Shown: positions 7,122 to 39,560, numbered from the stretch's first letter. The stretch is 64,000 nucleotides of DNA from Candidatus Omnitrophota bacterium (GCA_003140935.1 PLLJ01000045.1:2767-66766), one strand, 5' to 3'. Program-made: numbers and translations. Notes: generated by a model not told the origin, from the letters alone.

Positions 7122-8945
7122 TTAAAACCGACGGCTCGAGAACTTGACGCCGAAGCGAAGGTCGTAATGGGGAATAAGCGGCGGTTCACCATCTTGTTTG
7201 GCGAACTGGGTCCCGCCCACTCCGACGAATTCGCCGAAGATCGCCGTCTTAGCAAGCCACTCGTTCTCTTTCCACCGTTCGGTCCTGAACGGCATGATCC
7301 TCAGACCTGCGGCGACAAAGTATTGGTTCTGGTAAAAGAACGAAAAGGAGGCATTATTGACGTGCTCGAAGCGCATGTAAGGCATCAAAACAAGTTCGTC
7401 ATTAATGTAGTTTTGCGGCAGCGGGATCCCGGGAAGTTTGATGCCCAGGGTGACTTCTGAGTTAGCAATGAAAGCATTAAAGCTTTTTTCGGAACTGAAA
7501 TTGGTCTTGGAAACGAAATAATTCCCGAAATATTCGCCCCAGACATACTGGTGAAGGTAATCCGAGAAAACCTCGGGTTTCGTCTCGCCAAGCGACGGCG
7601 GTTCTGTGCCCCATTCGTAGTAACACTGAAGACCCCAGACTAGATCGTTGTCACGGCTGTTCGTGATATTGTCCTTGATATTGAATTGATCACCGTACTT
7701 GATATAAAAACGGTAATTCCGCATCCACTCCAGGATCGGGATCCCCCCGAACGGCTGGAAATTCTCAACCCAGGGATTGCGGGCAAGGGGCCGCCATTCC
7801 AAACCTGCCCAAAGCTGTAAATTGCTGGCAAAGTCCGCGGAATCGGACTGCAGGCTGACCGTTTCTTCGATGAAGGGAGAGATATTATCCAGCGGAAAAC
7901 GGATCCCGCTAAAGACCAGGCGATTGGTCCAAAAACCCACCTGCGTGTCGAAGCCTTTGGCCGCGAGGTTGGTCTGGCGCCAAGAGGTCTCGCCGAAGGA
8001 TTGCCACGTGATCGCGGTGCCGCAAGGCGTTCCTTGGAGGACCCCGTACATCTTCTCACCGATGCCCATCTGGTCGGTGAATTTGAGGATGAGTTCTTCT
8101 TCTTTTTTGAATTGTGCGGGCGTTTTGACCTCGATGGGTTTTTCCGCCTCGGGCACATAAACCGGCGCGCTGCGCACGGCCTCGGCGAAATTCCCGCCCC
8201 GCGATTCCACATTCGCTTTACTCGCAATGATCGCGGTCATAGCCTCTTCAGAAGACGCAAACGCCCGGTCCCCGACCCAAAACAGATCCGTGACCTGGCC
8301 CTTCGCGTTGGGGATAGGAAGCTGGCGTATTTCGACCCCTTCGAAATTAGCCGTCTTGAGGTTCTTCTTGATGTAATCGTCGACAGCCTTCACGTCTTTA
8401 AGACCGGAAAGGTGACGGGACTTCACGGCCCCGCCGCCAAAATCCGTCACGATGGAAAATTCGGCGTCCTGCTCACGGGAGTGGCTCTTGAGGACCGGAA
8501 ATCCACGGACCTCGCTCATTTTATGATCGAGCTTTTGCGGGGCCGCGGCAAAAAATTGTTCGGCGAAAAGGTTGGTCGTATGTTCGACCCGGCCTTCAAG
8601 CTGAGAGGCGCGATGGATTCCGGCGGCCGGGGACCGAACGGGTTTTGTTTCTGCGACGGGTGGGGTCATAGGTTGAATCTCAGCCCCAGAAGAAGCCGCG
8701 GGTTGGACCTGAGCCGCAAGCGGGGGGACTTGCTCTGTGGTCACGGCCGGGACCGGGGCAGGTTTTGTTTCCGCGGCAGGTGGAGCAGCAGGTTGGGCCG
8801 CGGGTTGGGCCGCGGGTTGGGCTTCGGCCGTAGAAACGGCCGCGGGTTCTATTTCAACAACGGGAGTTTTTTCTTCGGCAAAAGATGGGAAAGCTGCGGA
8901 TAGAAAAAAAGCAATGAAGAATATTAAAAAGTTTTTAATTCTCAT
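7122..8945 (-). CDS. outer-membrane beta-barrel protein with Pro/Ala-rich N-terminal linker
   Basis: Signal peptide MRIKNFLIFFIAFFLSAAFPSFA (ATG 8945; alternative upstream ATG 8984). It has AQPAAQPAAQPAAPPAA low-complexity repeats. The C-terminus is beta-rich and ends in RFGVKFSSRRF. Confidence 0.65.
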   Translation of the reverse strand: MRIKNFLIFFIAFFLSAAFPSFAEEKTPVVEIEPAAVSTAEAQPAAQPAAQPAAPPAAETKPAPVPAVTTEQVPPLAAQVQPAASSGAEIQPMTPPVAETKPVRSPAAGIHRASQLEGRVEHTTNLFAEQFFAAAPQKLDHKMSEVRGFPVLKSHSREQDAEFSIVTDFGGGAVKSRHLSGLKDVKAVDDYIKKNLKTANFEGVEIRQLPIPNAKGQVTDLFWVGDRAFASSEEAMTAIIASKANVESRGGNFAEAVRSAPVYVPEAEKPIEVKTPAQFKKEEELILKFTDQMGIGEKMYGVLQGTPCGTAITWQSFGETSWRQTNLAAKGFDTQVGFWTNRLVFSGIRFPLDNISPFIEETVSLQSDSADFASNLQLWAGLEWRPLARNPWVENFQPFGGIPILEWMRNYRFYIKYGDQFNIKDNITNSRDNDLVWGLQCYYEWGTEPPSLGETKPEVFSDYLHQYVWGEYFGNYFVSKTNFSSEKSFNAFIANSEVTLGIKLPGIPLPQNYINDELVLMPYMRFEHVNNASFSFFYQNQYFVAAGLRIMPFRTERWKENEWLAKTAIFGEFVGVGGTQFAKQDGEPPLIPHYDLRFGVKFSSRRF

Positions 8946-9007
8946 CGCCAATAAGTTTTTTCTTTTCGTTGTAACGCATTGCAAAACTTAGGGTAAGGAA
9001 CTGCCGC

Positions 9008-9811
9008 TTACGCTATGCCCAGCACCTGAGGCATATGATAAAGACCCTGCTTCTTTTTCGCAAGAAATTTTGCCGCCAAAAGCGCCCCGCGGGCAAAAGC
9101 TTCGCGCGAGGAAGCCTTGTGGACCAGTTCGATCCGTTCTCCGTCCCCGAAAAAAGATACCGTGTGGTCCCCGACCACGTCCCCGCCCCGGAGCGCGAGC
9201 ACCCCGATCTTGCCTTTTTCACGAACACCGGTCTCGCCTTTGCGCCCGTAAACCACATCCTTATTCATGTCACGGCCCCTGGCCCCAAGCAGGACCTCCA
9301 GGAGCTTCATGGCGGTACCGCTCGGCGCGTCCTTCTTCATCCGGTGATGGATCTCCATGATCTCAAGATCGTAGCTTTCATCCAGCGCTTTTCCCGCGAT
9401 CGCGGCCAGCTTGAAAAGCAGGTTCACGCCCACGCTCATGTTGGGAGATTGCACGATCGGGATCTTACGGGAAGCTGCCTGGATCTGCCGGAGCATGGGA
9501 GCCGGGATCCCCGTAGTCCCGATCACACACGCCGTGTGCGTTTTAAGAGCGGCTTTGAGATTCTCCCGAAGCGCCGAAAAATGGCTGAAATCGATCAGAA
9601 CATCCGCATGTTTCATCGCGGCAGTCGCGTCCTGGGTGATCTTCACGCCCATGAGGTCCCCACCGAGCACCGGCCCGAGGTCCTGGCCCAAAGCGGCATG
9701 CCCGCGTTCTTCAAGCCCGCCCACGATCTTGAAAGCTTTGTCCCGGCTCGCCAGCTGAAGGATGGTCTTTCCCATCCGTCCCGCAGCGCCTGCCATGACG
9801 AGCTTGATCAT
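9008..9811 (-). CDS. dapB: 4-hydroxy-tetrahydrodipicolinate reductase
   Basis: N-terminal NAD fold VMAGAAGRMGK and the EIHHRMKKDAPSGTA signature. 267 aa. Overlaps dapA by 4 nt. Confidence 0.9.
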   Translation of the reverse strand: MIKLVMAGAAGRMGKTILQLASRDKAFKIVGGLEERGHAALGQDLGPVLGGDLMGVKITQDATAAMKHADVLIDFSHFSALRENLKAALKTHTACVIGTTGIPAPMLRQIQAASRKIPIVQSPNMSVGVNLLFKLAAIAGKALDESYDLEIMEIHHRMKKDAPSGTAMKLLEVLLGARGRDMNKDVVYGRKGETGVREKGKIGVLALRGGDVVGDHTVSFFGDGERIELVHKASSREAFARGALLAAKFLAKKKQGLYHMPQVLGIA

Positions 9812-10695
9812 TTAACGACCCCCAGTTTTTTGAGGACTTCCGCGAGCTTCTTCGCGTTCTCGGGTCTCATCGCGCAAAGCGGCATCCGGAATTCGGGCTT
9901 GATCTTTCCCATCATCCCGAGCGCCGTTTTCACCGGGATCGGATTCGTCTCCATAAAGACGGCTTTGGAGACCGGATAAAGCATCTTATGGATCGAACGC
10001 GCTTCTTCCATGTTCCCGTTCAATGCCGCGGTCACCAGATTCTTCACAAGTCTCGGTGCGATGTTCGCGACGACCGAGATCACGCCGCGCGCGCCGATTG
10101 CGATCAGAGGGAAATTCAGGGAATCCTCCCCTGAAAGGACCGGCAGGTCGCAAAGCTGCATGATCTGATCGGCCTGGTCCATGCTGCCGCTCGCTTCTTT
10201 GATCGCGACGATCGTATCGATCTTGGAAAGACGCGCCACGGTCTCGGGAGCGATGGAGACCCCCGTGCGTCCCGGCACATTGTAAAGCACGATAGGTATA
10301 TCGACGCGACGGGCGAGATATTGATAGTGACGGAAAAGGCCTTCCTGTGTCGGCTTGTTATAATACGGGGTCACGACTAGCACGCCGTCCGCATTGATCC
10401 TTTTGGCATGCTGGATCAGACCGAGCGCCTCGGTCGTATTGTTCGAGCCGCAACCGCAGATCACGGGGATCCGGTGATGGATATACTCGACCACGAACGA
10501 CATGGCCGCGCGATGTTCGATATGCGACATCGTGGCGGATTCGCCCGTCGTGCCGCACGGAACGATCACGTCCGTGCCTTCCTTGAGGTGAAAATCCAAG
10601 AGCCCCTTGAGCGCTTTTTCGTCCACCTTCCCGTTACGGAACGGTGTCACAAGCGCGACCATCGAACCTTCGAAAACAGATCTCTTTTTTTTCAT
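9808..10695 (-). CDS. dapA: 4-hydroxy-tetrahydrodipicolinate synthase
   Basis: PCGTTGESATMSHIEH and the YNVPGRTG motif. 295 aa. Confidence 0.9.
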   Translation of the reverse strand: MKKKRSVFEGSMVALVTPFRNGKVDEKALKGLLDFHLKEGTDVIVPCGTTGESATMSHIEHRAAMSFVVEYIHHRIPVICGCGSNNTTEALGLIQHAKRINADGVLVVTPYYNKPTQEGLFRHYQYLARRVDIPIVLYNVPGRTGVSIAPETVARLSKIDTIVAIKEASGSMDQADQIMQLCDLPVLSGEDSLNFPLIAIGARGVISVVANIAPRLVKNLVTAALNGNMEEARSIHKMLYPVSKAVFMETNPIPVKTALGMMGKIKPEFRMPLCAMRPENAKKLAEVLKKLGVVK

Positions 10696-28246: not shown

Positions 28247-29383
28247 CTAAAACGTAAGATACGGCCCGGACTTTTTAAGGACCTTCGTCAGTCTGCCAAG
28301 ATCGCCGAGGGACCGGATCCGGGCACCTTCGCTGCGGAAAGCCATGACGCGATCGACCATCACCTGTCCCAAACCCGGGACGCGGAGCATGCGCTGCGGA
28401 TCATCATGATTCAGGTTCACCGGGAAAAACTCCGGATGCGCATGGGCCCACATTTCTTTCGGGTCGATCGTAAGAGAAAGGTTGCCGCCGGGGTCCAGAG
28501 GGATCTCATCCGCTTGAAATCCGTATTTCCGGATAAGCCAATCGGCCTGGTAAAGCCGGTGTTCGCGGACCAGAAGATCCCGGTTGGCGGCCCCCGAGCT
28601 CTCTCCCGGAAGTTCCGGCGCGCCCGCTCCTCTTTGATAAGCGCTGAAGTAGACGCGGGAAAGCCTCAATTGCTTATACAATTTCCAGGAATACCCCAGG
28701 ATCTCCTTGTCCGTTTCCGTAGAGGCCCCCACCACGAACTGGGTGGTCTGCTTGATCCCGGCATACTCCGCTCCTTTCCCGGTCAGTTTGCTGATCAACT
28801 GAATGGGCCGGATAATGTCCCGCAGATAGTTCTTGGTCGTGCTGAGATGTCTGAAATTCGCCTCACCCGCGGTTTCGATATTTAAAGACACGGCCGTCGC
28901 CAATGAAAGACTCTGGCGGATCGCGGTGTCAGACGCTCCGGGAATGACCTTCAGGTGAATGTAACCCCGGAACTGCGACTTGCGCAAATGGAGGGCCACA
29001 CGATTGATACGCTCCATTGTGGTATCCGGGTCCTTTGCGACCGCACTGCTCAAGAAAAGGCCGCTCACCTTCCGCGCGTGATAGTAGGAAAGAAAAGTCC
29101 GGGTCAATTCCTCGGGGCTTAAACTGCATCGCCGGGCGGCCGAACCCGTCCGGAGCGGACAGTATTTACAATTGTTCACGCATTCGTTGGAAAGAAGCGT
29201 CTTGAAGAGGAAGGTCCGCCCGCCATTCGGGAGAATGACCGGATAGATCCATTTGTTTTCCTGGGACCGGCGGCGGTGTTCCTCCGCTCCTGTCGCGCAG
29301 GCGCAAGCTAGGTCATATTGAGCGTCCCGCGCCAGAATGGCGAGCTTTTCTTCCGCATTGGGACTTCTTTGAATGCCGATCAT
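28247..29383 (-). CDS. putative DNA modification/repair radical SAM protein (HhH C-terminus)
   Basis: CVNNCKYC (CxxxCxxC) and a C-terminal helix-hairpin-helix LRVPGLGQVMVDRV. It resembles the family I recall as TIGR03916. Confidence 0.75.
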   Translation of the reverse strand: MIGIQRSPNAEEKLAILARDAQYDLACACATGAEEHRRRSQENKWIYPVILPNGGRTFLFKTLLSNECVNNCKYCPLRTGSAARRCSLSPEELTRTFLSYYHARKVSGLFLSSAVAKDPDTTMERINRVALHLRKSQFRGYIHLKVIPGASDTAIRQSLSLATAVSLNIETAGEANFRHLSTTKNYLRDIIRPIQLISKLTGKGAEYAGIKQTTQFVVGASTETDKEILGYSWKLYKQLRLSRVYFSAYQRGAGAPELPGESSGAANRDLLVREHRLYQADWLIRKYGFQADEIPLDPGGNLSLTIDPKEMWAHAHPEFFPVNLNHDDPQRMLRVPGLGQVMVDRVMAFRSEGARIRSLGDLGRLTKVLKKSGPYLTF

Positions 29384-31215: not shown

Positions 31216-31297
31216 TCTGTCACCGCCCCGCGTCTTTTGTCCTCGTGCCCCGAGCTACGAGTCCCGAGTCCCGTCTTCATTTGTCCCGATTCCCCGT

Positions 31298-31819
31298 TTA
31301 TATCTTTTTCGATTCCTGTTCCAGGCGCTTCATTTCTTCCAGGCTCGAGTTCTCTTCCCCGGCAATCTGTTGTCGGTTGTCCCCATCTTTATTCGAGTCC
31401 CGAGGAGCGAGTCCCGAGTCCCGCGGTGTTTCGTTCGAGTCCCGAGCTACGAGTCCCGAGTCCCGTGGTTTTTCGTCCGTCGTCTTGGCCTCAGGGGAAG
31501 AAAGTCCTTTTTTTGAGTCCTGTTCCAGGCGCTTCATTTCTTCCAGACTCGGGTTCTTTTCCCCGGTAGTCTGTGGTCGGTTGTCCCCATCTTTATTCGA
31601 GTCTCGAGCTACGAGTCCCGAGTCCCTGTCTTTATTCGAGTCCCGAGGAGCGAGTCCCGAGTCCCGCGGCGTTTCGTCAGCCGCAGCTTTATTCGCTCGC
31701 CGGGCCGCGATCGCCGTCCTCGCCGCCCGGATGCCAAAGATCGCGTGCGCCGGAGGCGCTCCGAGAAGAAACGTCCCCGTCACCAGTCCCGCCATCACGA
31801 TTTTAAAAGTTTTCGACAT
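31298..31819 (-). CDS. membrane-anchored/secreted repeat protein built on GGGACTC heptads
   Basis: ATG 31819 is preceded by GGGGAGGTTGGAG. The anchor is MSKTFKIVMAGLVTGTFLLGAPPAHA. Two repeats of about 68 aa follow (PRDSGL[AV][AP]RDSNKDGDNR...SLEEMKRLEQ[DE]SKK). Coding status is uncertain because the DNA is the intergenic repeat motif. Confidence 0.45.
   Translation of the reverse strand: MSKTFKIVMAGLVTGTFLLGAPPAHAIFGIRAARTAIAARRANKAAADETPRDSGLAPRDSNKDRDSGLVARDSNKDGDNRPQTTGEKNPSLEEMKRLEQDSKKGLSSPEAKTTDEKPRDSGLVARDSNETPRDSGLAPRDSNKDGDNRQQIAGEENSSLEEMKRLEQESKKI
31314..31677. repeat. tandem direct repeat, period about 204 bp, 2 copies
   Basis: The unit tcctgttccaggcgcttcatttcttccag...gtccccatctttattcgagtc...gagtcccgagtcccgcgg begins at 31314 and again at 31518. 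The second copy has an extra insert of about 38 bp. Confidence 0.85.
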
Positions 31820-31887
31820 CTCCAACCTCCCCATGCTGCGTTGTCCACTTAGGAATTTTATTCAACATGCCCTGAGATTAGAACGGC

Positions 31888-31919
31888 ACTATTCTACGAA
31901 GGAACGGTGAAGAATAAAG
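31888..31919 (-). promoter_or_regulatory. 32-bp promoter-like motif (upstream of the repeat-protein gene)
   Basis: The minus strand reads CTTTATTCTTCACCGTTCCTTCGTAGAATAGT. It contains a TAGAAT -10-like hexamer about 70 nt upstream of ATG 31819. Confidence 0.45.
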
Positions 31920-31929
31920 TACCATTCCT

Positions 31930-32250
31930 CTATTGTTCTTCCCTCGACCCATTGATCTCATCGCCCCGCGAATATCGTGCGGTGTCTCCGGCCTTATAAT
32001 ATTTTGTGACGGAAATGACGAATTCTAAAAAGCCCCGCGCTTTGAGCTCATCCTTGATCTTCTCCAAAAGCTCCTGTCCCGGATCTTTCTGGCTCCATAT
32101 AAAAAAAGAGAGCGTATCTTTCCGGACGGTCAAATGGTCCACATTCTCATGGGCCCTTAAGATCTGTTCGAGAGGGTGCACATCCTCCAGACGCAGAAAA
32201 CGCGACGGGAATTTGATCTCAATGATCGTTAAAGTGTTTAAAAGTTTCAT
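31930..32250 (-). CDS. hypothetical protein (106 aa)
   Basis: I start it at MKLLNTLTIIEIKF (ATG 32250). No motif recognised. The TAGAAT of the 32-bp motif lies 7 nt upstream of the ATG, so the mRNA may be leaderless. Confidence 0.4.
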   Translation of the reverse strand: MKLLNTLTIIEIKFPSRFLRLEDVHPLEQILRAHENVDHLTVRKDTLSFFIWSQKDPGQELLEKIKDELKARGFLEFVISVTKYYKAGDTARYSRGDEINGSREEQ

Positions 32251-32254
32251 GCGT

Positions 32255-32286
32255 ACTATTCTACGAAGGAACGGCGAAGAATAAAG
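32255..32286 (-). promoter_or_regulatory. 32-bp promoter-like motif (immediately upstream of 31930-32250)
   Basis: The minus strand reads CTTTATTCTTCGCCGTTCCTTCGTAGAATAGT. It matches 31 of 32 positions of the copy at 31888. Confidence 0.45.
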
Positions 32287-32358
32287 CCTTTTGCGGATTA
32301 AAACAACAAACGGAGAAATCAAACAATGGAGTCATCCCTTCCCTCTTTTGGATGGCTG

Positions 32359-32970
32359 TCATCTTTTTTTCAGAGTAGCTTTGTCTTTATAGCTTGTACA
32401 TCGCACATAAAAATCAAATTGAATTAAAAAAAGAAGTATTGCGAACATAATTGTTAGAAATAAATTTTTCGTTAAACTTAATAATCCTATCGCTAATAAA
32501 GTCCCATTTAAAAAAGCCATTAAAAATACGAGGATCGGGAAATGATGCAAAAAACCTTCAAAATGTTTTGGCTCCTCATCGGTTATCGGCAACTTCAAGT
32601 ATTTTGTCAGATCGTCTTCCAGACTATTATCTGTGAAATACTTGCGAGTAAGGTTTGCGCTTTTTGCATAAAAAATCATCCGCATCCTAAGATTCATTAT
32701 GATCGCAAGGAAAATAACTCCTATAACAACTAAAAAAAGAACTATATAGACAAATGGCACTGGCAGATTATACAAGTCCCAAGTGATGGAGTTTATTTCT
32801 CTTGTTAATGCTAAGAATAAAGAAAGCGGAATCGCAATAACACCAAAATAATATTTAAATAATTGATAAAGAATTGTATATAAATGCTCGTAAAGCTCAT
32901 GCAAAAGCTTGTGCTCCTGCATCATAAATTCAAATTCTTGCTGAGCAGATAGTTGAGGATGTTTTTCCAT
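32359..32970 (-). CDS. 4-TM membrane protein, last gene of the AT-rich island
   Basis: 203 aa. Cytoplasmic N-terminus, then hydrophobic helices FGVIAIPLSLFLAL, VPFVYIVLFLVVIGVIFLAIIM, FPILVFLMAFLNGTLLAIGLLSL and LFLTIMFAILLFLIQF. AT-rich codon usage matches the three upstream genes. Confidence 0.6.
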   Translation of the reverse strand: MEKHPQLSAQQEFEFMMQEHKLLHELYEHLYTILYQLFKYYFGVIAIPLSLFLALTREINSITWDLYNLPVPFVYIVLFLVVIGVIFLAIIMNLRMRMIFYAKSANLTRKYFTDNSLEDDLTKYLKLPITDEEPKHFEGFLHHFPILVFLMAFLNGTLLAIGLLSLTKNLFLTIMFAILLFLIQFDFYVRCTSYKDKATLKKR

Positions 32971-32990
32971 TGCTATCTTTAATGGGGTCG

Positions 32991-34070
32991 TTATTTCCTT
33001 CCCAATCTTTCTAATTCCCGGTTGTATGATTCAAAGCCATGTCTTATGACTATGTTTTGCTCTCGTACTTTTCTTCGAAAAAGTTTAACTTGCCAATCCA
33101 TCCAATTCTGATGAATAAAATAATCCGCAGAAGTCTGCGCGACTCTTGGGTTATAGTTATCGAACGTTTGATTTAAAGGCCGATAACGGCAATCAGCGGT
33201 TTGAACTCCCCATTTTTTACATTCTTTAATTTTTTGCAACATTTCATAAAAATCATGTTCGAAGTTAGATATCATGAACACGTACATCTCTTTTGCTCTG
33301 TATCCGGCTTCGATCAGCATCTCGATTTGTTTTTTTATCATTTGGCGCTGGGAATATCCATGATCCCAAGCGATCCTCGGGTTAAGAAAATGTGCCTGCT
33401 TCAACAATTTCGCCAATTCTGGCGTCAAAAGCCTCCCGTCAATTCCGCACTGACTTTCAGAATAGACCGCTCGCCCATTGCACTTCGCATTCTTCAATTC
33501 ATCCAAAATGTCTTTTATATATGGATTAGCTAAAAGATTATTATCGTAAAAAATTACCCTATTGCTACAAATCTCATCTTTGATACTTTTTTTGGGAATA
33601 AATTCGGGCTCGATTTTCCAAGTTCCGCAGAATTTACATTTTCGCACACATCCTCTTGAAGAATGAACGATCTGATAATCGACATCAACTAAACTGTAAT
33701 CTGGCGCAGATGCTTCCGCCTTTGGATCCACGCCAACAAAAACTTTATCGCATTCAGATTGTTTACAGTGGTCTGGCATGAGTGATGCATAAATGCCACC
33801 GACAGTTATATGGGCCCTGGGATAATTCTTTTTGTAGAATTTCACACTATCCCACACGTATTTGGACCAATAGGTAAATAGAGAGGTAATCTTAATTTCA
33901 TCCGGACAAAACTCTCCAACCAGCTTGTCCCCTCGCACAAGTCGGACTTTATCACCATTTGCTTTGTGGTAACTGGCTAGCTTGAGTAAGCCAACAGGCA
34001 AAAAATCTCGGTGATTTTTGCTTTTTGCTGGAATCGGAAAACCTGGTTCCACTAATAATATTTTAGACAT
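32991..34070 (-). CDS. radical SAM enzyme with N-terminal B12-binding-like domain (class-B-like), AT-rich island
   Basis: SSRGCVRKCKFCGTW contains CxxxCxxC. The N-terminus ILLVEPGFP...FLPVGLLKLASYHKANGDKVRLVRGD follows the Rossmann-like pattern of B12-binding radical SAM proteins. 359 aa. Its ATG overlaps the HD gene stop (ATGTCTAA). Confidence 0.8.
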   Translation of the reverse strand: MSKILLVEPGFPIPAKSKNHRDFLPVGLLKLASYHKANGDKVRLVRGDKLVGEFCPDEIKITSLFTYWSKYVWDSVKFYKKNYPRAHITVGGIYASLMPDHCKQSECDKVFVGVDPKAEASAPDYSLVDVDYQIVHSSRGCVRKCKFCGTWKIEPEFIPKKSIKDEICSNRVIFYDNNLLANPYIKDILDELKNAKCNGRAVYSESQCGIDGRLLTPELAKLLKQAHFLNPRIAWDHGYSQRQMIKKQIEMLIEAGYRAKEMYVFMISNFEHDFYEMLQKIKECKKWGVQTADCRYRPLNQTFDNYNPRVAQTSADYFIHQNWMDWQVKLFRRKVREQNIVIRHGFESYNRELERLGRK

Positions 34071-35583
34071 TTTTATTTAACAAGGTTTCTGGTAATTTCA
34101 ATTTAATGCCATTAAATTTTATATTATTCATAACATCTTTGTACTCGGGGAGTTTTCGAGCTAATTGCTCAGGATTAGCCCATCGGACTTTAACTTCAGC
34201 GTAATTATCTTCAAAACGGAAACCATCAAAAATGGCAAATTCCGCCGTTTCTTCGAAAGAACCGTTTCTTTTCCAATCATGTATGCTATCTAAAAAAATT
34301 AATAATACGGCGAAAGGGAAACGAGAAATATTAATCGGGAAGACTTCATGCTTTCTGAGTTCTTTCCAGATTCTGCTGTCATGTAGCGCAATAGAAGTAA
34401 CCGCTGGTATAACATGGGTAACAATTAACGGCCTATTGGGACGGCTGGTCACGACTTTTGATTCGCGTAAAACTCTCACAAGAAATTGAAAACATCCTGT
34501 TACTCCATGCGATCTATGTTTTATCAAATGTTCTCGTAGTATGTCCTTGATACTAGAATCCTCATCTTCTGACATTTCGGGCGTCCAATTATTAAGGATA
34601 CGTTCGGAACAACAATGTCGAATGAAGGATTGTAATTGTATCGCAGCCTGCAAATAATCACTTTTATCAGCGATCTTTTCCAAACCAATTAGTTCTATAT
34701 CCTCATTGTACCCGTACATTTCGCCAATTAAGTTGCCTGCTTTTTGCGAAGGGTAACCAATATCATGGAATATAGAAGTAATTAACCAGATGTATTCGAT
34801 GGAAAAATCTTTTTCCCGAGGAAAAACATTTTTATAATATTTTTGAAATTCCGCATAGTATTTATCGATTATTACGCATCCCATTAACATAACTTGAAAA
34901 GAATGCAAATAATGCTCACGCGTGCCCTTCAATAAGGGCTCATAATATTTCAGCCTCAAGTAAGGTTCCGAAGAATAATGAAATCTTTTATTATCAAAGA
35001 TTTTCTTTATCGTCAAATCAACTAATTCGTATTCCTCCTCTGAGATATTTTTTGTTTTTCTTAATCGTGAATATTTCGATACAAAATCCTTTAGGATTTG
35101 GCGGTATGAAATATTGTCCAAATCGCCAACGTACGATAAAAGCTTATTTGGAACATGTCCATGCTCAGAAGCCGCCTTCTTTTTTATTAGTTGTTTATAT
35201 TTTTTTCCACTAATTGCTTTGGCTTTAATATCAAGAAGTACGGAAAGCGAAGAATTGCTTAACTGAATTAGCCCAAATCCATTATTGAAACATTCAGAAA
35301 ATATCTGATCATATTCATATTCCGGCGGAATATAATAATAAAATTCAAAATTTTTAATTTGTTTTTTTGCTTTGATGATTTCTTTAGCGCCATTCGCTGG
35401 AAAAGCATTGCTTGTATTTATATCAATTGAAATTAATTTGGACTTATAGCGGTAAAGAAGATCTGGGCTCCACGCAATACCTCTTAAAATCCGATCTCCA
35501 GCCTTTTGGGAAAGTCTTCGCCAGTTGTATTTTTTCACTAAAATTTTATTGAGTTTATCTAGAAAAATTTCTTTTTTTGACAT
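34063..35583 (-). CDS. HD-domain phosphohydrolase with uncharacterised N-terminal domain of about 230 aa, AT-rich island
   Basis: Metal-ligand series H (EHYLHSF), HD (SIFHDIGYP), H (HRSHGVTG) and D (ALHDS / LDSIHDW). 506 aa. Confidence 0.7.
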   Translation of the reverse strand: MSKKEIFLDKLNKILVKKYNWRRLSQKAGDRILRGIAWSPDLLYRYKSKLISIDINTSNAFPANGAKEIIKAKKQIKNFEFYYYIPPEYEYDQIFSECFNNGFGLIQLSNSSLSVLLDIKAKAISGKKYKQLIKKKAASEHGHVPNKLLSYVGDLDNISYRQILKDFVSKYSRLRKTKNISEEEYELVDLTIKKIFDNKRFHYSSEPYLRLKYYEPLLKGTREHYLHSFQVMLMGCVIIDKYYAEFQKYYKNVFPREKDFSIEYIWLITSIFHDIGYPSQKAGNLIGEMYGYNEDIELIGLEKIADKSDYLQAAIQLQSFIRHCCSERILNNWTPEMSEDEDSSIKDILREHLIKHRSHGVTGCFQFLVRVLRESKVVTSRPNRPLIVTHVIPAVTSIALHDSRIWKELRKHEVFPINISRFPFAVLLIFLDSIHDWKRNGSFEETAEFAIFDGFRFEDNYAEVKVRWANPEQLARKLPEYKDVMNNIKFNGIKLKLPETLLNKNV

Positions 35584-35593
35584 ATATTTGGAA

Positions 35594-36592
35594 TTATTTG
35601 TTATTTATCATTTGGTCAATGGTGTCTCGAAGTTTTTTTAAAGAAACCAAGATTCCTTCCTTTCTTTTTTTATCAGTTTCCTTCTTTAAATCAAACTCAG
35701 ATAGCTGTGAATTTAATTTATTAATATTTTTAATTAATGAACGGCTTGTTGTTTTGCTGGTCAAGGTGGGTATTTGTACTTTTTTAGTTAAGTCGTTTTT
35801 CAAGTCTTCGATTGTATACTCGATGTTTTCAATAAATCTTTTTGCTGAAGCAGCAAAAATTTCGATTTTGTCCAACTTCTTGCAAGTCATGATGGCATCG
35901 GGTATCCAAAAGAATGCGCGAGTTGTCCCAAGAAGACCTTTTTCTGCTTTCGCTATAAGCTTCCCTCTAATTTCTTCCCTCGAGTGATCCTTAAAAGTTT
36001 GGGGTATGTTTTTTTCTAACTGTTCAACAAAATTTTGTTCTATCTGCACAAGGTAACTGTCATCCAGCTTATTCTCCATAACTTTTTCTTGCGTTTCTTT
36101 ATTAAACCTCAAAAGCCGCAATCTATCTTCGACCTTTTTTCCGTCCATTTTGGTTATCTTTGCTATTTCGCCAATTAGGTCTTGATCGGTTATCGATTTG
36201 TTTTTTCTTTTTATCAAATCAACATAGAATTTTAGCGCTTGGGCTTGCGCCATCGGCTCCCATTGTTCTCTCAGCATGTGAATTTGAAACATTCGTTTTA
36301 AGCCTTCCCCTTGGGCTTTGGCTTTTTTAATGGCCAACACATGGATGGGCACGCCTTCTCGTTTAACTTTTTGAGCAGCTTTAAGCCGTCTTTCGCCATC
36401 GAGCAAAATATATTTTTTGCCTTTTTTGCTATCGTTTTTAAAAACGATCAAAGGCACCATGACTCCAAATTGCCGAATGGATTCCTCTAGTGCTATGAAA
36501 TCCTTATCCTCATAATCCTGGCCTCTGGGATTATCTGGATTGAAAGCTATATCATTAGGAGAAACATACCTGATCTGCTCGTTTTTATTCAT
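35594..36592 (-). CDS. ParB/Srx N-terminal-domain protein, first gene of the AT-rich island
   Basis: VSPNDIAFNPDNPR ... VPLIVF ... YILLDGERRLKAAQ (the ParB box II GERR arginine motif), followed by a helical, K/E-rich C-terminal half. ATG 36592 is preceded by GGAGG at a 6-nt spacing. Confidence 0.75.
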   Translation of the reverse strand: MNKNEQIRYVSPNDIAFNPDNPRGQDYEDKDFIALEESIRQFGVMVPLIVFKNDSKKGKKYILLDGERRLKAAQKVKREGVPIHVLAIKKAKAQGEGLKRMFQIHMLREQWEPMAQAQALKFYVDLIKRKNKSITDQDLIGEIAKITKMDGKKVEDRLRLLRFNKETQEKVMENKLDDSYLVQIEQNFVEQLEKNIPQTFKDHSREEIRGKLIAKAEKGLLGTTRAFFWIPDAIMTCKKLDKIEIFAASAKRFIENIEYTIEDLKNDLTKKVQIPTLTSKTTSRSLIKNINKLNSQLSEFDLKKETDKKRKEGILVSLKKLRDTIDQMINNK

Positions 36593-36761
36593 TCTATACC
36601 TCCATTTATTCCATAAATCATTTAAGATTTTTTATCTTTGTAGACGGAATCGATCCTACTTTCTTTCGTAAGTCAACGGAACACCGTCTGGGGAAAGACG
36701 TTAACTCCCCAATCTTATAGACGCACTCTTCGTTACAGGCAAGGGGAAAAAAGAAACCGCC

Positions 36762-37211
36762 TCAAAGATATAAGGCGCAGACGAAGGCGAGGGCGCCGGC
36801 GACGAGGTTGGCCAGGGTGCCGATGAGCCAGCGCTGGAGGTTATAGGCGGCGATCCGGTTCCTCGCGCTCCAATAGTACATCGGGTCGAGGCCTTCGATA
36901 TGCTCCGGCGTTTTGACGATCAACGCCCACGCCACCCATTTGGAAACGAGCTTGAACGCGAGCCACCCGACGATGATCCTGGCGGAATGCGTGGTGAACG
37001 CGATATAGAACAGGACCACTTCGAGAAGCCCGAGGACTTTGCCGAAGACCGGGCTTACCTGGCCGATGAGGAACGCCTTGGCCAGCTTCTCGTCCACGCA
37101 GTGGTAGTCTTCGCGCTTTCTCAGGAGCCTGAAGAGCCCGCGGATCGCGAACGACAGGAGCACGGCGACGGACAAACCCACCACAAAATGTTTCAGCGCC
37201 AGAAGCTGCAT
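36762..37211 (-). CDS. membrane protein, unknown function
   Basis: 149 aa, 4 hydrophobic helices. GC-rich like the backbone. The overlapping alternative-frame ORF 36841-37362 is rejected. Confidence 0.55.
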   Translation of the reverse strand: MQLLALKHFVVGLSVAVLLSFAIRGLFRLLRKREDYHCVDEKLAKAFLIGQVSPVFGKVLGLLEVVLFYIAFTTHSARIIVGWLAFKLVSKWVAWALIVKTPEHIEGLDPMYYWSARNRIAAYNLQRWLIGTLANLVAGALAFVCALYL

Positions 37212-38207: not shown

Positions 38208-39560
38208 TCACCTTTGCATACGAACAGCGTGCCCTTTTTCCAGGAGTTCCTGGTTCACGTAAGTCCCGCCGGCCCAAATGTCGACCAGGTACCTGTCGTA
38301 TTTGTCGGACTTGACGGTCTTGATGAGGATTTGCGCGCTGATTTTTCCATCCGCCATTTTCAACATCTTCTCCATGGCTTCTTTCGCTTCTTTTCCTTCC
38401 TTGCTCACGAGCTCGGGGGCGTCGAGACCGCGCAGGCGCAGGGTCTGCACGCTGCGCACGCCGAAGCCCAGATCGACCACCGCTTCGATCGTGTCGCCGT
38501 CGAGAATGCGGAACACCCAGGCGCGGTAAGTAAAAAGGTCGGCGGAGGTCCGTTTCGAGAGTTTGATCAGATCCGAGGGCGCGGAACCCGCTCCCGGGAA
38601 CGCGGGCATCACTTCGATGATCGCCCCTTCCTTGAAACGGAGGTCCCGGGACGTCCGGTAATAATTGGAGAACCCGAGGTCGATCACCGCCTTGCCGGTC
38701 TCGGGGCCCGCGGCGGCTTTGACGATCTTATAAGTCCCGGGCTTCCCCGGCTTGGCCGTGAGCGGGGTTTCTTTCACCGGCGCCGGCGCCTCATTTTTCG
38801 CGGCCTTGCGCTTTTTCACTTCTTCACGTACCTGGTCGCGGGTCCAGTTTTCTTTTTCAGCCATGGCCGCGACCTCGTCTTGCTCCTTGATATCATTCAG
38901 CGAAAGAAGCTCCTCATAATGGCTCCAGCTCAATTTTCCCGCGGGCGGGGAAATCGGGTAATCGCGGGCGAACTGAAGCATGGCGTACAGCTGGGTCTCG
39001 CTGATGGGCAAGTCTCCGGACAATCTTAAGATCACCTGCTTGCCGTAATCCGCGCGCTCCTTGTGCTGGAGCACGTGCTCGTCGATCAGTTTGCCGATCT
39101 CCCACGCCTCGCGGACTTTTTCCTGTTGGGCGGCCTGCTCCACACGGGCCTCGCTGGCCGCGTGGGCCTTGCGAATGGCGGCGACGAGCTGCTCGTAAGT
39201 TCCAACCTGGGTCGCGAGCACTGTAGACGATGGTCCCAAATCGTCACCGGGCCGTGCCTGTTCACGGCGCTCTTCAGCCGTCCCTGTGGGACTGGGAACA
39301 GGCGAGGTCTGGACCTGCGGCGCGGGCACTGTAGACGATTGTCCCAGATCGTCACTGTGCCGTGCCTGTTCACTGGGAACAGGTGCGGGGACCGGCGGGT
39401 TCATCGAAGGGACCTGCCCTGAGCTTGCCGAAGGGGCCTGCGAAGACGAGGACTTCAAGTCCCCGCGAGCGTGCTGAGGAACCGGGTCCTCAGCCTGCAA
39501 GGACGGGGATATCCAGAGGAGCGTGAGGAAAATACCGAGGGTGATCGTCGTCGTCTTCAT
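38208..39560 (-). CDS. secreted fusion protein: DUF1016-N-like helical domain + staphylococcal-nuclease (SNase)-like domain
   Basis: Signal peptide MKTTTITLGIFLTLLWISPSLQA. P/S-rich duplicated linker. Central EAWEIGKLIDEHVLQHKERADYGKQVILRLSGDL...LSWSHY resembles the YhcG/DUF1016 N-terminal region. The C-terminus ILDGDTIEAV...LRGLDAPE...DKYDRYLVD is thermonuclease-like. Confidence 0.65.
   Translation of the reverse strand: MKTTTITLGIFLTLLWISPSLQAEDPVPQHARGDLKSSSSQAPSASSGQVPSMNPPVPAPVPSEQARHSDDLGQSSTVPAPQVQTSPVPSPTGTAEERREQARPGDDLGPSSTVLATQVGTYEQLVAAIRKAHAASEARVEQAAQQEKVREAWEIGKLIDEHVLQHKERADYGKQVILRLSGDLPISETQLYAMLQFARDYPISPPAGKLSWSHYEELLSLNDIKEQDEVAAMAEKENWTRDQVREEVKKRKAAKNEAPAPVKETPLTAKPGKPGTYKIVKAAAGPETGKAVIDLGFSNYYRTSRDLRFKEGAIIEVMPAFPGAGSAPSDLIKLSKRTSADLFTYRAWVFRILDGDTIEAVVDLGFGVRSVQTLRLRGLDAPELVSKEGKEAKEAMEKMLKMADGKISAQILIKTVKSDKYDRYLVDIWAGGTYVNQELLEKGHAVRMQR

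Follow-up and report, generated by a model that had tools for sequence, protein, structure and literature searches.

An AT-rich block of four genes lies among housekeeping genes of a Candidatus Omnitrophota bacterium, and the question raised by this locus is what the four products do together. The block, called the island here, was found in a stretch of 64,000 nucleotides (nt; GCA_003140935.1, PLLJ01000045.1:2767-66766), the whole of which is called the window. It encodes a ParB-like protein (A), a predicted nuclease-fold and HD protein (B), a radical S-adenosylmethionine (SAM) enzyme (C) and a transmembrane (TM) protein (D). An initial annotation, made from the sequence alone, had read the island as a defence-like module that modifies or depletes nucleotides or DNA. 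Its DNA-centred, defence-like character was supported by our analysis, with the emphasis now on DNA modification and restriction and not on nucleotide depletion. We assign a probability of roughly 0.55 to the reading that the island is a defence of restriction-modification (R-M) type, in which the radical SAM enzyme would mark self DNA, the ParB protein would load or activate it, and protein B would restrict unmarked DNA.

A conserved trio of ParB, B and radical SAM genes

Close copies of genes A-B-C (B 64-76% identical) were present in four unrelated genomic neighbourhoods, namely that of the window organism, one in Velamenicoccus archaeovorus (LiM enrichment; CP019384, locus at ~598.7-602.3 kb) with an excisionase-like HTH_17 gene and type IV secretion system (T4SS) genes, one upstream of archease and RtcB genes, and one beside a type I R-M system. 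A scan of metagenome loci with an alignment of 14 B sequences added 54 loci with mostly remote B proteins (23-32% identical). ParB, B and a radical SAM homolog occurred together in 39 of these loci, and 37 had the trio co-oriented in the order ParB-B-radical SAM (remote examples are L095, L096 and L098). The ParB gene was located directly upstream of B in 45 loci, and most loci without the full trio were cut by contig ends. B overlapped the radical SAM gene by 4 nt in 25 of the 37 ordered trios. The A-B-C order is deeply conserved, with translational coupling, and the conserved unit consists of three genes, not four. The initial annotation had taken the four genes as one combination with a membrane effector. 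A lack of synteny in other genomes, named in the initial annotation as grounds for refutation, clearly does not apply to ParB-B-radical SAM. In contrast, no homolog of D was detected at any of the 54 metagenome loci or at any other locus of this kind, so the membrane effector had to be abandoned as a core feature.

Within the metagenome trios, identity to the window proteins was mostly 50-76% for the radical SAM enzyme, 29-41% for ParB and 23-32% for B. As a rule, methylases diverge less than the restriction enzymes that belong with them, and the slower evolution of the radical SAM enzyme relative to its partners follows the same pattern, which fits a role in DNA modification.

ParB and B could instead suffice as a nuclease defence of their own, with the radical SAM gene as a frequent passenger of defence islands that is not functionally tied to them. 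A few loci do contain ParB-B without an adjacent radical SAM gene (L127, L149, L155 and L156), and defence genes cluster for reasons besides shared function. Against this stand the frequent 4-nt overlap, the maintenance of gene order across 23-76% B identity and the position of the radical SAM gene as immediate terminal gene in nearly all visible contexts, even after inversion. We consider this the least probable of the readings weighed here.

Radical SAM genes at the end of restriction-type modules

The context of the radical SAM gene was surveyed at 80 genome loci from Bacteria and Archaea, where it nearly always closed a co-oriented module. The upstream module was a GHKL (HATPase_c_3) ATPase with a partner of ~330 amino acids (aa) or a fused C-terminal domain (20 loci), a two-gene system with a ~475-aa ParB (15 loci), PbeA and PbeC with a ~145-aa protein (14 loci), DrmA-DrmB-DrmC-DrmE-like genes (9 loci, archaeal and bacterial), ParB - small protein - SNF2 - ParB-like, with SNF2 and DUF2779 genes following the radical SAM gene (5 loci), HerA-like ATPases, two with type I modification and specificity (M+S) genes (5 loci), or ParB and B (1 locus). 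Two loci contained other modules: a DndB-HEPN protein abutting the gene (L064), and HerA-like and AAA_23 ATPases (L061). A contig edge lay upstream in seven loci, and in two the radical SAM open reading frame (ORF) was not called. Modules were assigned with PADLOC and Pfam (PbeA 2e-228, PbeC 1e-184, DrmA 4e-70, DrmB 2e-21, DrmC 4e-16, DrmE_C 1e-13, DndB 7e-16).

The radical SAM gene therefore stands last in at least seven restriction-like architectures, i.e. Pbe, class 2 DISARM-like, Dpd-like ParB/SNF2, GHKL ATPase, two-gene ParB, HerA-like and type I/IIG. At three methanogen loci, the Pbe genes were inverted relative to the radical SAM gene and the adjacency was kept. In the Pbe-type and DISARM-like modules, the gene occupies the position of the DNA methylase or Dnd module. 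The usual companions of Pbe/CxC-DndE cores are modules for phosphorothioation or cytosine methylation (PMC10853773). The ten largest unassigned flank genes of four Pbe-type and two DISARM-like modules were housekeeping or unrelated genes, and neither a methylase nor a dnd gene was among them. Standing at the methylase position of restriction-type systems, the radical SAM enzyme probably marks host DNA.

The partner modules also bring their own nucleases (HKD/PLD, restriction-fold plus HD, or DUF2779), so that the radical SAM enzyme is not needed as an effector. This bears on the rival effector reading, which goes back to the initial annotation and in which ParB and B would sense an invader and the radical SAM enzyme would produce a toxic or chain-terminating nucleotide analogue or inflict direct radical damage on nucleic acid; the HD domain of B would process or deplete nucleotides, and the TM protein would serve as an abortive-infection arm. 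HD dNTPases are known defence effectors, defence systems commonly exchange effectors between sensor modules (many modules have this radical SAM enzyme in common), and a TM protein adjoins the radical SAM gene in two architectures. Radical SAM antiviral effectors also exist, namely prokaryotic viperins (pVips) and Ophion (10.1101/2025.09.30.679545). Protein C lacked a viperin-type domain in searches that included defence hidden Markov models (HMMs). With the nucleases already supplied by the partners, we regard the effector role as unlikely.

Several further observations concern the partners. A C-terminal domain of ~180 aa is common to the ~475-aa ParBs (L014, L044 and others) and the ~610-aa GHKL proteins (L008, L016). 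Pfam held no match for this domain, the radical SAM gene always followed it directly, and it may act as a reader or nuclease module. A common adaptor domain across all partners was considered and rejected: HMM and hhalign comparisons linked the ~180-aa domain to none of B, c4/c8, c2, c6 and others, and only c4 and c8 were mutually related. In a Thorarchaeota metagenome-assembled genome (L054), tandem radical SAM paralogs (7980-9170, 396 aa, and 9260-10639, 459 aa) are located beside HerA-like c18/c88/c25. A ParB-SNF2-ParB-like-radical SAM locus was also present in Atabeyarchaeum deiterrae-2 (L070; CP147780.1, 594,914-612,017), for which a published PacBio analysis tied only 5 of 11 modification motifs to a methylase (PMC11529989).

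Predicted properties of the core proteins

Protein C belongs to the radical SAM superfamily by its cluster motif and by a partial TIM-barrel fold or profile match. The motif C141-x3-C145-x2-C148 (CxxxCxxC), which ligates [4Fe-4S], was invariant in 24 close homologs and in 130 members of the wider family. An N-terminal B12-binding-like Rossmann domain is shared with the class B (cobalamin-dependent) radical SAM methyltransferases, and C may bind cobalamin. Other cysteines were less constant among the 130 members: C102 and C107, the only extra cysteines of the N-terminal domain, were kept in 70% and 56%, C208 was replaced by serine in 66%, and C284 and C294 were lost in a remote subfamily. With no universal cysteines beyond the three of the cluster motif, there is no support for a MiaB/RimO-like second Fe-S cluster, and the idea that C is a methylthiotransferase or carries an auxiliary cluster was dropped. 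Homologs of C numbered 2400; the best 120 of these were 65-78% identical, and the named organisms among the 120 were Elusimicrobiota, Omnitrophota, Zixibacteria, Atribacterota, Ignavibacteria, Bacteroidota and Nanoarchaeota. We interpret C as a putative DNA-modifying, self-marking enzyme.

A profile of C found no match in a sequence search of the PDB. The closest solved folds were AprD4 (acting on an aminoglycoside), MgmA and RimO (proteins), TsrM (tryptophan) and MiaB (tRNA). As these never act on DNA, C might likewise modify RNA (tRNA or rRNA), a protein or a small molecule, which would turn the island into a transferred metabolic or translational cassette with no defence function. This appears very unlikely, since the neighbours of the family (ParB/DndB, SNF2, PLD/HKD, DrmABCE, PbeAC, GHKL, HerA-like, type I M+S) are all DNA-directed, the partner proteins are too variable to be the substrate, the auxiliary-cluster cysteines of methylthiotransferases are not conserved, and no biosynthetic genes are linked.

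Protein A matched Pfam ParB_N (PF02195) over residues 5-93 with 47.7 bits against a cut-off of 26.3 (E 1.6e-12), and the ParB-N domain with a GERR motif described in the initial annotation was thereby confirmed. This N-terminal domain is of the NTP-binding ParB_N type, with the arginine-rich GxxRxxA box of the ParB/Srx superfamily, and its NPRG and DGERRLKA motifs were kept in 17 ParBs linked to radical SAM genes. The C-terminal ~100 residues had no family match, and HTH_ParB was matched only at E 0.039. A partition ParB (ParABS) was considered and rejected: protein A fell under the NCBIfam cut-offs (TIGR00180, 47.5 versus 58.45; Noc, 52 versus 315; RepB, 24.6 versus 201.5), and no ParA-like gene was present in or next to the operon. 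By analogy with other ParB-family proteins, A may be a DNA-loading or activating partner of the radical SAM enzyme, the nuclease or both.

Protein B had no match in Pfam, PADLOC, NCBIfam or a profile-based sequence search of the PDB, and a profile search of 1.8 billion representatives retrieved 1275 relatives. Among 50 relatives (19-29% identity), H224, H227, H273, D274, H359 and H401 were invariant and D432 nearly so. These residues make up a metal site of HD type, and the HD assignment is based on this motif (H...HD...D, on an all-helical HD fold) together with fold matches. In the AlphaFold model (predicted local distance difference test, pLDDT, 65 overall and ~85 over residues 1-120), residues ~1-120 resemble a PD-(D/E)xK restriction-endonuclease fold and residues ~215-440 an HD-superfamily domain. 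The combination of metal site and endonuclease-fold domain would therefore make B a two-domain, nuclease-type protein, probably a restriction or effector nuclease. The HD assignment of the initial annotation is retained; a plain HD phosphohydrolase is not, as the predicted N-terminal nuclease-fold domain had been missed.

Phage copies and defence-island company

Two orphan copies of the radical SAM gene were found on phage contigs, one directly upstream of a large terminase gene (phrog_38, 2e-93) and another ~770 nt downstream of a phage DNA methylase gene (phrog_116, 6e-91). Both were without restriction-like partners, which is the pattern of orphan methylases that evade restriction and fits a DNA-modification role.

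At 31 of 51 loci, the G+C content of the radical SAM gene was more than 5 points under that of the distal flanks; at none did it exceed the flanks by more than 5 points. Neighbours of the radical SAM systems included T4SS and integrative and conjugative element genes, type I R-M, GmrSD and reverse transcriptase (Table 1), the last three being typical company in defence islands. A remote radical SAM subfamily (~30% identical) was observed on IMG/VR contigs L102-L105. Three of these (L103-L105) share a conserved gene of ~193 aa upstream of the radical SAM gene, together with divergent genes of ~212, ~445-472 and ~1000-1040 aa, and this layout may represent another, uncharacterised architecture.

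Composition and setting of the island

The G+C content was 35.6% in the four-gene block (32359-36592) versus 54.9% in the remainder of the window. For 514 segments of the same size elsewhere in the window, the mean was 0.55 (standard deviation 0.021, minimum 0.493), which places the island ~9 standard deviations under the window mean. Because no other segment falls below 49.3%, the island is the sole low-GC stretch in 64 kb. At third codon positions, G+C was 0.31-0.38 in the four genes versus 0.74-0.84 in flanking genes, and beyond ~36700 the overall G+C returned to flank level. Genes A and B are separated by 10 nt, B and C overlap by 8 nt, and C and D are separated by 20 nt; a GGAGG ribosome-binding site (36603-36599) precedes the ATG of gene A by 6 nt. 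The abrupt drop in G+C, the four co-oriented genes with exactly these spacings and the ribosome-binding site had all been described in the initial annotation and were reproduced. A terminator-like hairpin of the gene upstream of the operon (36777..36758) leaves a leader, in which neither a cobalamin riboswitch nor any Rfam family was detected.

Table 1. Features of the island, and defence genes accompanying radical SAM systems at other loci
Feature	Position	Strand	Description
Gene A	36592..35594	minus	332 aa, ParB/Srx-superfamily protein
Gene B	35583..34063	minus	506 aa, predicted restriction-endonuclease-fold and HD protein
Gene C	34070..32991	minus	359 aa, radical SAM enzyme with B12-binding-like domain
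Gene D	32970..32359	minus	203 aa, about four TM segments
Leader and probable promoter region	36593..36761	minus	169 nt upstream of gene A
L093	9504-11090		RVT_1 reverse transcriptase
L098	9491-11335		GmrSD
L091	7860-15096		Complete type I R-M
L044	4051-6522		GmrSD_N/Mrr_N protein

The flanks contain housekeeping genes, among them those for argininosuccinate synthase (argG) and lyase (argH), diaminopimelate decarboxylase (lysA), DoxX and hemerythrin. No tRNA gene, integrase or bracketing repeats were found around the island, and no empty site was found in related strains. The island was horizontally acquired, as had been proposed initially on the grounds of its foreign composition amid housekeeping genes. 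The accompanying claim of a recent event could not be upheld, since all contigs of the organism that reach the site carry the island and the data give no date.

The trio might also be a maintenance, addiction or counter-defence module of a mobile element, with ParB for partition or silencing and with B and the radical SAM enzyme as a toxin-antidote-like pair or a shield from host restriction. The Velamenicoccus trio, located between the excisionase-like gene and the T4SS genes, suggests such a role, as do an HTH_17 gene upstream of the system in L091, the orphan copies in phages and the participation of ParB-family proteins in plasmid conflicts (Maindola et al. 2014, as cited in PMC10853773). 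The window island, however, is embedded in housekeeping genes, with no integrase, tRNA gene, flanking repeats, or parA or parS-like partner; protein A scored under the partition-ParB cut-offs, and most radical SAM contexts are chromosomal restriction-like modules. Moreover, if an addiction pair consists of a nuclease and a modifier that protects from it, its mechanism is in practice that of restriction-modification. We therefore regard a maintenance function as quite unlikely.

Other features of the window were noted in passing. Two short contigs from different samples (L163, L164) both stop exactly 165 nt into the ParB gene (window ~36428), an assembly break at the island edge which may reflect strain heterogeneity. 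Just downstream of the island, a 32-nt direct repeat (31888-31919 and 32255-32286, 31 of 32 positions identical) brackets a minus-strand ORF (31930-32250, 106 aa) of intermediate G+C (0.46); the repeat may be regulatory, or a small insertion may have left it behind. Another minus-strand ORF (31298-31834) contains repeats of 30-118 nt (31229-31710) and encodes a 178-aa protein of PRDSGL-ARDSNKDGDNR-like units. The version in the L086 strain is 243 nt shorter (92 aa called), so members of the population differ in their number of repeat copies. Two genes upstream of the island, a minus-strand gene (38208-39560) encodes a probably secreted or surface nuclease of 450 aa with a signal peptide, a Pro/Ser-rich linker and DUF1016_N and SNase domains. 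A second radical SAM gene in the window (28247-29383, minus strand, 378 aa), located in DNA of normal G+C, proved unrelated to gene C by BLAST.

Protein D as an accessory

Hydropathy placed the hydrophobic segments of D at residues ~37-55, 64-102, 141-167 and 157-192. No Pfam or NCBIfam family was matched, and only four homolog clusters were found in 5.8 billion proteins. In L093/L094, the gene of one relative (55% identical) overlaps both of its neighbours, which encode an N6-methylase-like protein of 1096 aa on one side and a radical SAM homolog (57% identical) on the other; this system is of a different type from ParB-B-radical SAM. As the G+C content of gene D (0.319) matches that of the island, D is a rare accessory that came in with the island, i.e. 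a lineage-specific addition.

A model for the trio and its implications

According to the model favoured here, protein C would place a covalent mark on the host's own DNA, C-methylation being the simplest guess from its fold relatives. By analogy with DpdB-DpdA, DndB and the ParB-dependent phage thymine dioxygenases, protein A, as an NTP-binding ParB-type protein, would load onto DNA and bring in or activate the modifier, and perhaps the nuclease as well. Protein B, judged by its fold and motifs, would attack DNA that lacks the mark, and D would be a rare addition outside the three-gene core. This R-M-like reading is based on the methylase position of the radical SAM gene, the ParB precedents, the conservation of the trio, the partner nucleases, the phage orphans, the signature of horizontal transfer and the neighbours, since all recurrent neighbours of the radical SAM gene are DNA-directed conflict proteins.

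Several points weigh against it. No report of a radical SAM enzyme marking DNA for self/non-self discrimination was found in the literature searched, and no DNA-acting enzyme is among the closest solved folds of C. Protein C also lacks a variable target-recognition region, so that any sequence specificity would have to come from the partners. In some architectures an N6 methylase is already present, namely the N6-adenine methylase of the type I M+S genes that occur with c78, c79 and the radical SAM gene, and the N6-methylase-like protein of L093. A second modifier looks redundant there, unless the methylase recognises the target or the radical SAM enzyme hypermodifies it. The fetched flank of the DISARM-like loci ends before the DNA upstream of DrmA, where a methylase is possible. 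The structural model of B has moderate quality, and remote relatives do not all keep the catalytic residues of the endonuclease-fold domain. Finally, the phage orphan copies could equally be phage-borne defence or counter-defence genes.

The reading can be widened to the whole family, which would then install a novel covalent DNA mark (e.g. a C-methylation by radical chemistry or a different adduct). By this mark, at least seven restriction architectures in anaerobic Bacteria, Archaea (including DPANN, methanogens and Asgard) and the candidate phyla radiation would tell self DNA, with phages carrying orphan copies to escape. Beside phosphorothioation and 7-deazaguanine, it would be the third major non-methyltransferase route to epigenetic self-marking. 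This extension is tentative, and we give it slightly less than even odds.

If the radical SAM enzyme does mark DNA, both the chemistry of the modification and the resulting family of immune systems would be new, the latter following restriction-modification logic with a new class of modification enzyme. Such systems would be widespread in anaerobes and archaea, whose defences have been little mapped. A DNA-marking role would also explain how Pbe-type and DISARM-like modules function in genomes without Dnd genes or methylases, add a further case of ParB proteins as cofactors of DNA-modifying enzymes and possibly offer a tool enzyme for site- or context-directed DNA alkylation.

Comparison with known systems

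The initial annotation had matched the island to no named system, and this proved correct. A PADLOC scan of the four window proteins returned nothing better than E 0.017, Pfam and NCBIfam held no family for B or D, and the literature searched was silent. The island and its immediate flanks contained no DrmABC, PbeAC, DndACDE/SspABCD, DpdA, PglZ/PglX or SAM-dependent DNA methyltransferase. The window system falls outside DISARM, Pbe, Dnd/Ssp, Dpd, BREX and the classical R-M types I-IV. No description of the radical SAM family or of the ParB-B-radical SAM trio was found in the literature searched, which is no proof of absence; PF28273 'PP_RS20740' was followed as a lead and yielded only an unrelated paper.

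Dpd modifies DNA with 7-deazaguanine and restricts, and its components DpdD-K come with SNF2-type helicases. In this system, a ParB-family NTPase is likewise paired with a DNA-modifying enzyme, self and non-self being distinguished by modification, and the ATPase activity of DpdB is required for DpdA to insert preQ0 into DNA (PMC10164549). The likeness extends to the ParB - small protein - SNF2 - ParB-like - radical SAM - SNF2 - DUF2779 loci, whose helicases match DpdE models (best E 1.6e-32). The window trio differs in having no DpdA (tRNA-guanine transglycosylase), no DpdC and no link to the preQ0 pathway, its presumed modifier being the radical SAM enzyme. It also has no helicase, its predicted nuclease is of the endonuclease-fold and HD type, and the PADLOC models for Dpd miss the window proteins.

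As for Dnd and Pbe, the ParB-superfamily protein DndB accompanies a modification enzyme, and in L064 the radical SAM gene has a DndB-domain protein as its direct neighbour; in the 14 Pbe loci, PbeA, PbeC and the ~145-aa protein are followed by the radical SAM gene. The window, in contrast, contains neither DndA/C/D/E nor PbeA/C. Its system includes no desulfurase or PP-loop protein, and the presumed mark would not be DndC phosphorothioation. Class 2 DISARM (DrmE, DrmA, DrmB and DrmC) has the cytosine methylase DrmMII as its last gene, and in nine loci the radical SAM gene is terminal after DrmA-DrmB-DrmC-DrmE-like genes, in the place where DrmMII stands. The window system has no Drm genes. In the DISARM-like loci, the radical SAM gene appears to replace the methylase.

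Protein C is only 10-15% identical to the class B radical SAM methyltransferases (TsrM, MgmA, TokK and CysS) and to AprD4, and at 359 aa it is shorter than these relatives (417-658 aa). The known class B members act on small molecules, peptides and proteins, not on DNA, and AprD4 illustrates that this fold can work without B12. The phage thymine dioxygenases (5mYOX) are activated on double-stranded DNA by a ParB homolog (PMC13229309), and a ParB with a conserved NTP-binding domain is encoded there beside a post-replicative DNA base modifier. That modifier is an Fe(II)/2-oxoglutarate dioxygenase and serves phage hypermodification, not a restriction-type operon of the host. The ParB partners of these known DNA modifiers (DpdB, the phage ParB and DndB) fit a DNA-modification role for C.

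pVips and Ophion resemble the window system in being radical SAM enzymes in anti-phage defence. Ophion, the sole recent radical SAM defence system found, has a different radical SAM enzyme and different partners. By analogy, the window system would work most like Dpd and Dnd, combining a ParB-family partner, an unusual DNA modifier and restriction, with an enzyme class that is new in this setting.

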